Positions 37,767 through 60,996 of a stretch of 64,000 nucleotides of DNA are shown one piece after another. This stretch comes from Phoronis australis (taxonomy: Eukaryota; Animalia; Phoronida). Every line of letters starts with the position of its first letter. Positions within the stretch are counted from its first letter, which is position 1. Made by a program: the position numbers and the translations under genes. The notes below the pieces were generated by a model. That model saw only the letters and a program-made list of their open reading frames with translations, did no database searches and was not told where the DNA came from. Location of the stretch: assembly GCA_002633005.1 (NCBI GenBank), contig NMRA01000180.1, forward strand, positions 36,518 through 100,517, given 5' to 3'.

Positions 37767-37821
37767 ATGAAGCAACACCAAGCTCTAATCTTCGTGATGT
37801 TAACGAGTAGGATATTATTAC
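37767..37821 (+). CDS. PLAT-TSP1 gene first coding exon (signal peptide)
   Basis: MKQHQALIFVMLTSRILL with a phase-1 donor C|GTAAGT; joins exon 2 to give ...LLHAEA/YYR, an A-x-A cleavage motif. Confidence 0.65.
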
Positions 37822-59800: not shown

Positions 59801-60996
59801 TGATTCCGACATTTTCATAAGGTTCCCTGACTGGATTTCATCTGGTTTAGATGGGCAACACTCCCAAGACGTCATCCGGTTACGTGAATGGCATGTTTTT
59901 TTTGCAGTCGACGGTCAATGGAGTAAATGGTCAGGCTGGTCAAAATGTAGCCAGTCATGTGGAAAGGGTGAGCAGAAAAGACTGCGTAGCTGTGACGATC
60001 CTTCTAACTCTTCCGGTGGATCGGGTTGCAAAGGAGACAATAACGAAATGCGGGAATGTACAGTTGAAAAGTTTTGCGAGAAGAAAGCGTCTGACGGCAA
60101 CCCTGTCATATCACAGGCTACCCCGCGGGATAGGACGGCCAAAATAATTGCACTATCATCAACTGCTGGCGTGATGTTCGTGGCTATAGTTGTCATTCCA
60201 CCTTGCATTTTTTTCACAAGGTGAGTGTAACGCTGCCGAGAGATACATGCACAGTGAAACCTTTGCCACAGGAGTGAACTTCCTGATCGCTCTCAAACAA
60301 AATCACACTCGCAATAATACGCCACACAGAACCTTCGCTACGAGCAAAAACCTTAACCATGCTCAAATTGCCTTTAACCAAGCGTCAGTTCAAGCGCAAA
60401 AACCTCGTGGTACATGTACTTTTAAAGGTGTGTCTGCGGCGTAGTTTTAGTTCAACTTCCGTTGTTAGTGAAGATGGTGTATTTTTCCTAAAAAGGCCTT
60501 CGGCCTACATGTACATTACAAATATACAATAAACAGAGAGTACGGGATATCTAAACCACCTGTGTTCTTTATGTTGGACACATGTAGGTAAGACTTTTTT
60601 CGTGGAGAATGGCAAGGTTCCGTTGCTGTGACGTCTGCTTCCGCAGTACTTGTTTTCGGTACGTGATAAGGATTCCACTACCATCTCTGAGACTTTATAG
60701 TGCAACAACGTTATTTAAATTTCCCTCCAGTGTCTATTTTAATCATCACGATTGGTGGTTGAATATTTACATGTATGTCATGCTTTAGTTCTGGTTGACA
60801 TGAGTGCATGCTATATTTCAGGAGAAATTCATGGAAACAAAAGATCGGTTTATGCTGCACGAGAAGCCAGCTTGACTTTTCGTCTCACAATACCTCCTTC
60901 GATTCGACATTTGCCAATACCGGTGCACACAGGGAAGACAATGCAGGGCTCGGTGAAACAGGCGACATTCTAAATCTCCCCGTTATAAACGTTTAG
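37767..60996 (+). CDS. Type I membrane protein: signal peptide + PLAT/LH2 + 30 TSP1 repeats + TM + cytoplasmic tail, about 1947 aa
   Basis: Exons 37767-37821, 45569-45725, 48839-48926, 49617-49713, 50404-50574, 53122-53292, 53521-55743, 55957-56127, 56670-58892, 59908-60220, 60822-60996. All introns GT..AG with consistent phases; sum 5844 nt, open to TAG. Confidence 0.85.
41570..41920 (+). repeat. (ATC/ATT)n microsatellite tracts
   Basis: Pure CAT run at ~41851-41893 and an imperfect tract at ~41570-41705. Confidence 0.9.
43213..43990 (+). mobile_element. Interspersed element with a tRNA-like segment, copy A
   Basis: Collinear with 50611-51330 plus 52353-52505 (TACCACATACT.AACGAGAAA, ATAGCGTATAAATGTCGGTACAATG, GACTCGAAACTCTTG). 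Confidence 0.7.
43850..43925 (+). repeat. tRNA-derived segment (not a canonical tRNA gene)
   Basis: A-box-like TGGTGTAGTGG and B-box-like GGTTCAAACC at tRNA spacing; diverged second copy at ~52378-52447. Confidence 0.5.
44005..44605 (+). pseudogene. Decayed duplicate of the PLAT-TSP1 signal-peptide exon plus ~0.55 kb of intron (source ~37750-38365)
   Basis: GGAGT(A/G)ATCCAAGCATGAAGC is shared; the copy reads MKRVGHLALIFLI* from 44022 and the donor GTAAG has become TTAAG. Confidence 0.7.
44684..44772 (+). repeat. (TG)n and (CA)n microsatellites
   Basis: TGTGTGTGTGTGTG and CACACACACACACACACACAC tracts. Confidence 0.9.
45569..45725 (+). CDS. PLAT domain exon A
   Basis: TTTGCAG acceptor; YRIHVKTSDDSGPGAHHVDIMLYG...LNHEDFKRG fits the PLAT pattern Y.I.V.T......G...V.I.LYG...F.RG. 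Confidence 0.85.
46345..48365 (+). mobile_element. HINE-like element with a long diverged tandem array (~140-nt unit) in an intron
   Basis: Recurring TCAATGAAAGTTGACAC...GCAGC(A/G)CCTC.TAGTGGC motifs; GTCCGG repeats and AATATCTCAAAAACCATTGGTCGGA near the start; boundaries approximate. Confidence 0.6.
47998..48056 (-). repeat. tRNA-derived SINE head fragment
   Basis: Minus strand TGGCCCAGTG (A box) ... GGTTCGAGCC (B box). Confidence 0.5.
48839..48926 (+). CDS. PLAT domain exon B
   Basis: Long pyrimidine tract plus TAG; TDAFLIPEDCGILFKIALRQTGADWKLQA; donor GTAAGT. Confidence 0.85.
49617..49713 (+). CDS. PLAT domain exon C
   Basis: GACAG acceptor; VKITDYDRSNTQYQFHCDCSINELNPYEIKRT; phase-1 donor G|GTAGGT. 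Confidence 0.8.
50404..50574 (+). CDS. Single TSP1 exon (171 nt, phase 1-1)
   Basis: VNGGWTSFGPYTRCSTTCGTGRRTRQRSCTNPKP...CP. Confidence 0.9.
50611..52505 (+). mobile_element. Interspersed element copy B, with a ~160-nt terminal hairpin and a nested insertion
   Basis: Palindrome 50617-50778; body homologous to 43213-43990; interrupted at ~51331-52352. Confidence 0.7.
51331..52352. mobile_element. Nested DNA-transposon-like insertion with GTCCGAATTTCCC subterminal repeats
   Basis: Absent from copy A, where TCATTTAAG joins CTATTTTCACG; the motif or its reverse complement recurs at ~51722, 51758, 52065, 52096, 52117, 52138, 52333. Confidence 0.6.
53122..53292 (+). CDS. Single TSP1 exon (171 nt, phase 1-1)
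   Basis: [34 protein letters not shown]...CS. Confidence 0.9.
53521..55743 (+). CDS. Giant exon with 13 TSP1 repeats, copy A
   Basis: 2223 nt = 13 x 171, open frame, WxxWxxWxxCSxTCG repeats, TTAG acceptor and G|GTTTGT donor. Confidence 0.95.
55957..56127 (+). CDS. Single TSP1 exon (171 nt, phase 1-1)
   Basis: [34 protein letters not shown]...CP; TTTCAG acceptor, GTAAAA donor. Confidence 0.9.
56283..56430 (+). pseudogene. Decayed TSP1 exon
   Basis: NTWGSWGDCTLSCGGGQQLRT then a frameshift to TNPTPSHYEEDCKG; no AG acceptor at the expected position and the 3' end is lost. Confidence 0.7.
56670..58892 (+). CDS. Giant exon with 13 TSP1 repeats, copy B
   Basis: 2223 nt, offset 3149 nt from copy A, open frame, TTTCAG acceptor and G|GTTTGT donor. 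Confidence 0.95.
59053..59223 (+). pseudogene. TSP1 exon with open frame but defective donor (paralog of 55957-56127)
   Basis: The 171 nt are followed by TTAGAC instead of GT; the adjacent GT, 1 nt earlier, would shift the frame. Confidence 0.55.
59349..59524 (+). pseudogene. Decayed TSP1 exon with intact splice sites
   Basis: TTCAG acceptor and CAG|GTATGA donor, but TGA replaces the first Trp (VNGS*NTWGSW) and the length is 176 nt (frameshift). Confidence 0.75.
59908..60220 (+). CDS. Last TSP1 repeat, stalk and transmembrane helix exon
   Basis: VDGQWSKWSGWSKCSQSCG...; IIALSSTAGVMFVAIVVIPPCIFF hydrophobic segment; donor AG|GTGAGT, phase 2. Confidence 0.9.
60822..60996 (+). CDS. Terminal exon, cytoplasmic tail
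   Basis: TTTCAG acceptor in phase 2; RNSWKQKIGLCCTRSQ...ILNLPVINV then TAG. Confidence 0.8.

Follow-up and report, generated by a model that had tools for sequence, protein, structure and literature searches.

A predicted surface glycoprotein of Phoronis australis carrying a divergent PLAT head on a stalk of thirty TSP1 repeats

PLAT domains are usually described as membrane-docking domains that are either intracellular or attached to an enzyme (PMC4232524), and besides membranes they also bind other proteins (PMC4232524, PMC10892792). Here we analyze a gene in a 64,000-nucleotide stretch of the phoronid Phoronis australis (assembly GCA_002633005.1, contig NMRA01000180.1, positions 36,518 to 100,517; the whole stretch is called the window, and all positions below are its own) whose predicted product places a single PLAT domain in front of 30 thrombospondin type 1 repeats (TSRs, or TSP1 repeats), a transmembrane (TM) helix and a short tail. 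Papers are cited by PubMed Central (PMC) number.

Several described proteins share part of this plan. Rhamnospondins (Hydractinia; Hydra Tsrp2) also have one binding head followed by a run of TSRs, and microbe binding has been proposed for them (PMC4820225), but their head is a rhamnose-binding lectin, their TSRs number eight and they are secreted, whereas the gene studied here encodes a PLAT head, 30 TSRs and a TM anchor; the head and the TM helix led us to reject the rhamnospondin label. CCp3/LAP1 of Plasmodium is likewise a secretory protein for adhesion, built of several domains. Its LH2/PLAT domain is N-terminal and has been suggested to attach via partner proteins, but it is followed by LCCL, scavenger-receptor and LamG domains; the protein has no TSP1 stalk and belongs to an unrelated lineage (PMC10892792). 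The nearest PLAT sequences found, with 36% identity over exon 2 of this gene, are those of Helobdella P0122 and Macrostomum P0123, to which the head aligns across the whole domain. Each of these has eight PLAT repeats and no TSP1 by Pfam, whereas this gene has a single PLAT behind a predicted signal peptide, with three Cys and an altered calcium loop and Trp. We take both proteins to be LOXHD1-like. THSD7A and THSD7B are single-pass proteins with a short tail and mixed TSR types. They resemble the present model in having 18-19 TSRs and lying at the cell membrane (PMC11990869), but have no PLAT head, and they are absent among the 240 matches listed for exon 7 (below).

The first-pass annotation of this DNA had argued that the labels usually attracted by TSP1 hits, namely hemicentin, SCO-spondin and coadhesin, do not fit the layout, and Pfam scans of the 11 exon pieces of the gene agree. 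SCO-spondin is marked by VWD, LDL-receptor class A, TIL and cystine-knot domains, none of which was detected in those pieces, and the label was rejected. Polycystin-1 has multiple TM helices and carries its PLAT after the first of them. The polycystin-1/REJ family was rejected for this gene, which has one TM helix, an N-terminal PLAT and no REJ or GPS (PMC4890752); so were hemicentin, since the pieces show no VWA, Ig series or C-terminal EGF by Pfam (PMC6947537), and coadhesin or TSP-1 and VWA protein, since they show neither VWA nor F5/8C (PMC4890752).

The gene model was assembled by joining exons by coordinates in a script, on the + strand, with borders and phases checked. Eleven exons run from an ATG at 37767 to a TAG at 60996, exactly the span first proposed, and give an uninterrupted frame of 1947 amino acids (5844 nt). 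GT-AG borders are found in each of the 10 introns, and the phases (1,2,0,1,1,1,1,1,1,2) match at every joint. The predicted product consists of a 22-residue leader, a 110-residue head, 30 TSP1 repeats of 57 amino acids, a short linker, a TM helix and a 58-residue tail, so that the originally suggested order of PLAT, 30 TSP1, TM and a tail of about 58 residues holds for the open exon chain and for the motif and profile tests below. The full chain is a predicted model, with two of its 10 splices seen in RNA.

37767..37821, + strand: exon 1, start codon and most of the predicted signal peptide (18 codons and 1 nt; phase 1, GTAAGT donor).
45569..45725, + strand: exon 2, predicted cleavage site (AEA) and first half of PLAT (Pfam PLAT sub-threshold; spliced to exon 3 in an RNA contig).
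48839..48926, + strand: exon 3, middle of PLAT (profile positions 61-85; shares the spliced contig with exon 2).
49617..49713, + strand: exon 4, end of PLAT, with a phase-1 donor facing the TSP1 array (profile positions 88-108).
50404..50574, + strand: exon 5, TSP1 repeat 1 (Pfam TSP_1 E 1.1e-11; RNA splice to exon 6).
53122..53292, + strand: exon 6, TSP1 repeat 2 (Pfam TSP_1; RNA splice from exon 5).
53521..55743, + strand: exon 7, TSP1 repeats 3-15, 13 in one exon (13 Pfam TSP_1 stretches; stranded RNA cover in runs X2 and X3).
55957..56127, + strand: exon 8, TSP1 repeat 16 (open frame, Pfam TSP_1).
56670..58892, + strand: exon 9, TSP1 repeats 17-29, a duplicate of exon 7 (Pfam TSP_1; 95.8% identity to exon 7).
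59908..60220, + strand: exon with TSP1 repeat 30, a short linker and the predicted TM helix (Pfam TSP_1 E 5.5e-11; hydropathy 2.34).
60822..60996, + strand: last exon, predicted 58-residue cytoplasmic tail and stop (open frame; no Pfam match).

The Pfam scans were made on the 11 single exon pieces: exon 2 alone gives PLAT as its sole match (positions 1-47, E 0.06, 14.5 bits for a cut-off of 23), and exons 3 and 4, scanned singly, give none. We also scored the joined head on a profile of our own, 118 positions long, built from 13 of the 16 natural, Pfam-verified PLAT repeats of P0122 and P0123 (three incomplete P0122 stretches were left out). Over positions 4-107 this head reaches 57.9 bits, compared with 8.3 for the highest of 1000 shuffles; exon 2 alone scores 27.9 bits, and exons 3 and 4 joined, which had no part in choosing the profile sequences, score 20.5 bits against a shuffle maximum of 5.1. 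When 2181 six-frame segments of the window are ranked on the same profile, exons 2, 4 and 3 take ranks 1, 4 and 7, exons 3 and 4 being non-significant singly. Since the joined head scores far above the shuffles, exons 3 and 4 taken together do so as well, and the three exons map to consecutive profile positions, the encoded head is best read as a complete but divergent PLAT, in line with the first reading of these small exons.

Among 1.84 billion representatives exon 2 alone matched three proteins at E<=0.001: two are the multi-PLAT proteins P0122 and P0123, with eight PLAT stretches each, and the top match, P0121, was rejected as a 164-residue repeat protein without PLAT. The predicted fold of exon 2 alone is a low-confidence two-strand hairpin (pLDDT 61.6) for which Foldseek gave no match at E<=0.001. 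A word search with exon 2 gave two candidates, neither of which scored; an Atlas search gave unnamed short clusters only (0.85-0.86), which are uninformative; and 111 pattern matches in prokaryote genomes yielded no confirmed one. PDB sequence searches with exons 2, 3 and 4 returned 0, 2 and 3 matches, at chance level. No further copy of exons 2-4 was found within the 64-kb window.

In 5-lipoxygenase, Asn43, Asp44 and Glu46 bind calcium, and Trp13, Trp75 and Trp102 bind membranes (PMC5113960). Compared with the PLAT consensus, the phoronid head reads FKRG for FERG, His at the Asp of GTD, CDCS for the closing C-x-x-W and DCG for DLG; it has EDFK at the consensus nkfe, contains three Cys, and retains two Asp, one ahead of the Phe in the calcium loop and one in the DW motif. 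We assume that the calcium residues of 5-lipoxygenase correspond to the FERG loop and its membrane-binding Trp102 to the closing Trp. As far as its sequence tells, the head thus lacks the lipoxygenase-type acidic calcium-loop residues and the membrane Trp, and with Lys at the position of a calcium-binding Glu, calcium-driven lipid binding is doubtful.

All 30 repeats of the stalk are 57-residue TSP1 units with at least six Cys, two of them having a seventh; WxxWxxWxxC is present in 29 and CxxS/TC, an O-fucosylation motif (PMC11990869), in 26. Pfam TSP_1 scores above cut-off in all seven TSP1-bearing exon pieces, and the best PDB matches of the repeats are thrombospondin-1 and properdin. The six Cys, the WxxWxxW ladder, CxxS/TC and the Pfam score are those of group 1 TSP1 (PF00090). 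N-x-S/T sequons in the stalk number 62, where 1000 shuffles give 24.1 +/- 4.3 (maximum 40), and these counts confirm the earlier description of 30 repeats rich in WxxW and N-x-S/T. The sequon density of 3.24 per 100 residues is high but not unique, as it is exceeded by 39 of 240 relatives (median 0.89). The seventh Cys stands at the same motif position in repeats 12 and 27 (~55060-55230 and ~58380-58550), though these are not twin repeats.

The predicted TM helix reaches a Kyte-Doolittle maximum of 2.34 (19-mer window) at residue 1865, and all 12 top windows lie at 1862-1873. The sequence RRNSWKQK follows. The 58-residue tail has basic stop-transfer residues, a CC pair, presumably a palmitoylation site, and a hydrophobic C-terminal end, VINV, which we take to be a PDZ-type motif. 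The tail exon has no Pfam match, and neither tail nor head has a related sequence among the proteins compared.

To place the array, exon 7 was searched at E<=1e-20, which gave 1840 longer and 2233 similar-length proteins, with the best 120 of each listed. The named matches among these 240 are mostly from molluscs and cnidarians, plus other invertebrates, with 31-49% identity to exon 7. They are long arrays of 57-residue group 1 TSP1 with varied heads, automatically labelled SCO-spondin-like, coadhesin-like, adt-1-like or hemicentin (for example Mytilus P0001 and P0095, and HyTSR1 of Hydra, P0002), and some have a TM helix and short tail like this gene; a TM-like stretch lies in the C-terminal half of 21 of the 240. 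Many of them carry other heads, which we read from their accessions as SEA, VWA, PAN, SRCR, CUB, MAM, IgGFc-binding and galactose-lectin. Judged from these sequences, invertebrates commonly exchange the head on a TSR stalk, and the design is an established one. PF01477 occurs in none of the 240 best relatives, and our own PLAT profile gives 2.3 bits at best among them, though the ranking favours long pure arrays and would pass over a protein that combines PLAT with few repeats. The first-pass annotation had called the protein unusual, which is right for the exact domain combination but not for the design; PLAT heads outside the cell are known as well, as in CCp3/LAP1 (PMC10892792). From the other side, an Atlas search with a natural PLAT repeat gave 30 of 30 named matches that are PLAT-only, and no PLAT+TSP1 cluster among the matches listed. 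No described PLAT+TSP1 protein turned up in the literature, seen mainly as titles and the starts of abstracts (the part of PMC3269628 available holds nothing relevant to the combination), and supplements of shell or tube proteomes could list one. On this showing PLAT+30xTSP1+TM is an undescribed combination of well-known parts in a known design, not a new kind of machine.

To ask whether the exons are transcribed we used a contig set (X1) and three raw runs (X2, X3, X4) of the same species label, with about 18-19% of each raw run read, mapped to 37600-55900 at 88% likeness; exon depths come from bin means and are upper bounds. Among the runs listed in a search of sequencing runs, none that matched was on record as RNA, and one matched with a small share. 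One 200-nt contig (X1 record 5) joins exon 2 (0/103 differences) to exon 3 (2/91), and its last six letters no longer follow the intron behind exon 3, as expected if exon 3 were spliced to exon 4. Reads across the exon 5-6 splice number 17 in X2, 10 in X3 and none in X4. In X2 the depth is 0.6x at exon 1, 4.5x, 4.3x and 5.3x at exons 2-4, 6.3x over the first 27 nt of exon 5 and 12-15x over most of exon 7; the corresponding values in X3 are 4.6x, then 2.5x, 1.3x and 2.4x, then 5.0x and 7.5-11.5x, and X4 is at or near zero throughout. Exons 2, 3, 4, the start of 5, and 7 show one strand class, and the PLAT and TSP1 exons vary together across runs. This pattern fits one transcript, short of proof. 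At 43213-43965, 50611-51332 and 52352-52463 lie dispersed repeats, which include inverted arms at their ends and a short tRNA-like element; large numbers of RNA reads that stem from other genomic loci map there.

The explanation we tentatively favour, at somewhat less than even chances, is that this is an expressed multi-exon gene for a single-pass (type I) surface glycoprotein, in which 30 TSP1 repeats would serve as a long spacer and the PLAT head that it presents would dock, for adhesion, on a partner that is a protein or belongs to the matrix. The sequence provides the open chain of signal peptide, PLAT, TSP1 array, TM helix and tail, and the RNA provides transcription from the right strand and two splices. 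The whole chain would then stand on one mRNA, with the product at the cell surface and its PLAT outside. The motifs of the repeats, taken together with PMC11990869, suggest that they would carry C-mannose, O-fucose and dense N-glycans and form a stiff rod. A TSP1 repeat is ~5 nm long. The rod could therefore measure up to ~150 nm and clear the glycocalyx or mucus. The head would bind without a lipoxygenase-type calcium site; its ligand would probably be a protein or a part of the matrix, and Cys residues of the head would form a disulfide. The short, non-catalytic tail may anchor or sort the protein and would not signal enzymatically. The gene could have originated by phase-1 exon shuffling that put a PLAT module on a TSP1 stalk, which was later doubled by internal duplication and came under homogenisation. 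The first-pass annotation's long glycosylated tether with a binding head survives in this account; the lipid binding that went with it is weakened by FKRG and by the changes at the GTD Asp and the closing Trp.

A number of observations weigh against this account. The exon 1 leader would make a weak signal peptide, with a hydrophobic core of ~8 residues (mean 2.76), an Arg inside or after the core, and A-x-A ahead of the PLAT start; among four candidates in 36000-45500 that combine an ATG, a hydrophobic stretch and a phase-1 donor, exon 1 alone has the consensus GTAAGT donor. In addition, intron 1 contains a partial relic of the gene:

43014..44632, + strand: decayed second copy of the gene's 5' end, within intron 1 (71-77% identity to 37477-38392, in four blocks).

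The exon 1 copy in this relic (44022-44083) has a stop at codon 14 and a TT donor, and there is an upstream donor at 43018/9. RNA reads similar to the relic (42987-44083) splice from 43018 to 44007 in X1, X2 (10 reads) and X3 (4 reads). They carry 30-33 other letters and a 6-nt deletion that make them exon-1-like, with at least 10 differences per read there, and a search for the extra letters in the 64-kb window found nothing above chance. We conclude that these reads come from an expressed paralogue or from an intact allele of the decayed copy; their pattern across runs follows that of this gene, and such a transcript is possibly the true 5' end in the sampled animals. With exon 1 at 0.6x in X2 and reads like the decayed copy at 13-17x at 44.0 kb, the signal exon in use may be another copy than exon 1. 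Further downstream, joints 1-2, 4-5 and 6-7 (also 3-4) are not among the 15 of 61 joints listed, which come mostly from repeats, and RNA mapping ends at 55900, before exon 8, so the link to the TM helix is predicted from the sequence. The contrast in X2 between 17 reads across exons 5-6 and an average of 4-5x over exons 2-4 could reflect a second 5' end. For the head, FKRG also occurs in one natural PLAT repeat of our alignment and is not proof of lost calcium binding; the Glu-to-Lys change therefore weakens calcium binding but does not exclude it. Finally, no orthologue that would show the layout to be conserved is found among the matches listed (best identity 49%).

Among the alternatives, a rather unlikely one keeps the same protein but has the head bind the lipid surface of microbial membranes, of lipoprotein or food particles, or of dying cells. 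On an epithelium that feeds or secretes mucus, the protein would then be a receptor for capture or pattern recognition. PLATs of lipoxygenases and polycystin-1 do bind membranes or phosphatidylserine (PMC9682198, PMC11918491, PMC8740744), and the lectin-headed rhamnospondins are expressed at hydroid mouths (PMC4820225). The two retained Asp residues are compatible with such binding, but the Lys in place of the FERG Glu and the missing GTD Asp and closing Trp speak against it, as does a tail in which Pfam finds no signalling domain. In other animals the alleles are divergent mosaics, a trait shared with many recognition genes; this variation, however, lies in the stalk, while the PLAT exons in the spliced contig show the few differences given above.

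Next, and unlikely, the gene may make mainly shorter or secreted forms, or carry its PLAT and TSP1/TM exons on separate mRNAs, so that the 30-repeat TM form exists on paper only. The key joints are either missing from the list or beyond the mapped region, and the depth in X2 and X3, 11-15x before, is down to 3-4x in the final 425 nt of exon 7 (55319-55743), a dip that filtering may have caused. If intron 7 were retained, the frame would stop six residues further on, with poly(A)-type hexamers at 55903 and 56042, and a TM-like stretch is seen in only a small share of the relatives. A truncated product could also arise from one of three damaged TSP1 exons, all outside the model:

56281..56476, + strand: decayed TSP1 exon, frameshifted, borders approximate (sequence; alignment to its twin).
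59053..59223, + strand: TSP1 exon duplicated from exon 8, open frame, TT donor, predicted skipped (sequence, Pfam TSP_1).
59349..59524, + strand: decayed TSP1 exon of 176 nt with an in-frame stop (sequence; alignment).

Because the donor of the 59053-59223 exon is TT, the count of 30 repeats requires that it be skipped; use of a GT one base earlier would shift the frame, lose the TM helix and give a product of 1921 residues. Against all this stand the phases, which match at every joint: exon 4 runs in frame to its phase-1 donor with no stop of its own, exon 5 has neither start nor signal, and exon 9, the TM exon and the tail exon are open with canonical borders. The joint change of PLAT and TSP1 exon expression between runs also speaks against separate mRNAs.

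It is improbable that the product instead has a structural role in a matrix secreted as shell, tube, cement or mucus, either tethered there or shed, with PLAT as a passive interaction module. TSP1 is among the commonest domains of brachiopod shell matrix (PMC13425148), occurs in TM proteins of coral skeletons (PMC4890752) and is repeated up to 25 times in louse cement proteins (PMC6947537), and the spare Cys of repeats 12 and 27 could form cross-links; but the model has no chitin-binding, VWA, acidic or low-complexity mineral-binding region, and RNA depth is low in the sampled runs.

The stalk has grown by duplication of a 2.9-kb block, in which exons 7 and 8 and the first decayed TSP1 exon were copied as exon 9, the TT-donor exon and the second decayed exon. 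Exons 7 and 9 are more alike than their surroundings: they have 95.8% identity and a synonymous divergence (dS) of 0.082, with a ratio of nonsynonymous to synonymous divergence (dN/dS) of 0.41, whereas the flanking introns are only ~73% alike with large indels and exon 8 differs from its twin at dS 0.40. Even within the large exons the first two repeats differ by 23 and 16 per 171 bases and the other eleven by 2-8. This uneven identity suggests an older duplication with later, perhaps ongoing, gene conversion within the big exons (53521-58892). Of 10 read variants listed in exon 7, four equal the exon 9 base and six do not, and one contig agrees with exon 7 everywhere except at one of 23 diagnostic sites; given this mixture of exon 7 and exon 9 bases, other haplotypes are mosaics.

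That the gene is decaying, or that the doubling is two alleles assembled in tandem over a true stalk of ~16 repeats, is very improbable: three damaged TSP1 exons and a dead 5' copy, a 4.2% difference between exons 7 and 9 that is near the read-versus-window differences (2/249 and 9/174), and 16 of 16 X2 reads with the exon 9 base at three sites where the two exons differ speak for it, but the intron and exon divergence is too uneven for alleles, which makes a tandem-allele assembly error unlikely, and the 5844-nt frame is free of stops and spliced RNA exists.

If a surface protein with a docking head is indeed encoded, a lone extracellular animal PLAT on a spacer would offer a clean test of PLAT binding without a catalytic partner, and the gene would represent one lineage-restricted shuffle of known modules. 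Automatic annotation would likely miss the three small head exons and call the gene SCO-spondin-like, so that similar heads may hide among TSP1-only models. A bolder version, which we regard as decidedly unlikely, would make it the first surface receptor of an animal to carry its PLAT head outside the cell. It would be an antenna that captures lipids or microbes at a distance of ~100-150 nm from the cell, on a stalk whose length and sequence duplication and gene conversion tune between individuals, and it would belong to a PLAT-TSP1 family of invertebrates, so far unrecognised, whose members are either membrane-bound or secreted.

Elsewhere in the window, eight other open reading frames were scanned and gave no Pfam family above cut-off except the TSP1 of the TM exon. 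On the minus strand, a short open exon-like stretch at 5700-5860 has no Pfam match and gives us the impression of an SH3b-like pattern, and a decayed coding-like stretch at 20700-21480 resembles, by eye, what we take to be a Harbinger/IS5-type transposase. GC-rich, CCGACC-rich inverted arms (69 nt, 98.6%) at 29643-30598 flank an assembly gap of 518 N at 29863-30380. A large inverted duplication at 25265-28424 (1.28 kb, 91%), with internal units of ~416 nt and (GAATAA)n ends, is probably a transposon-type repeat.

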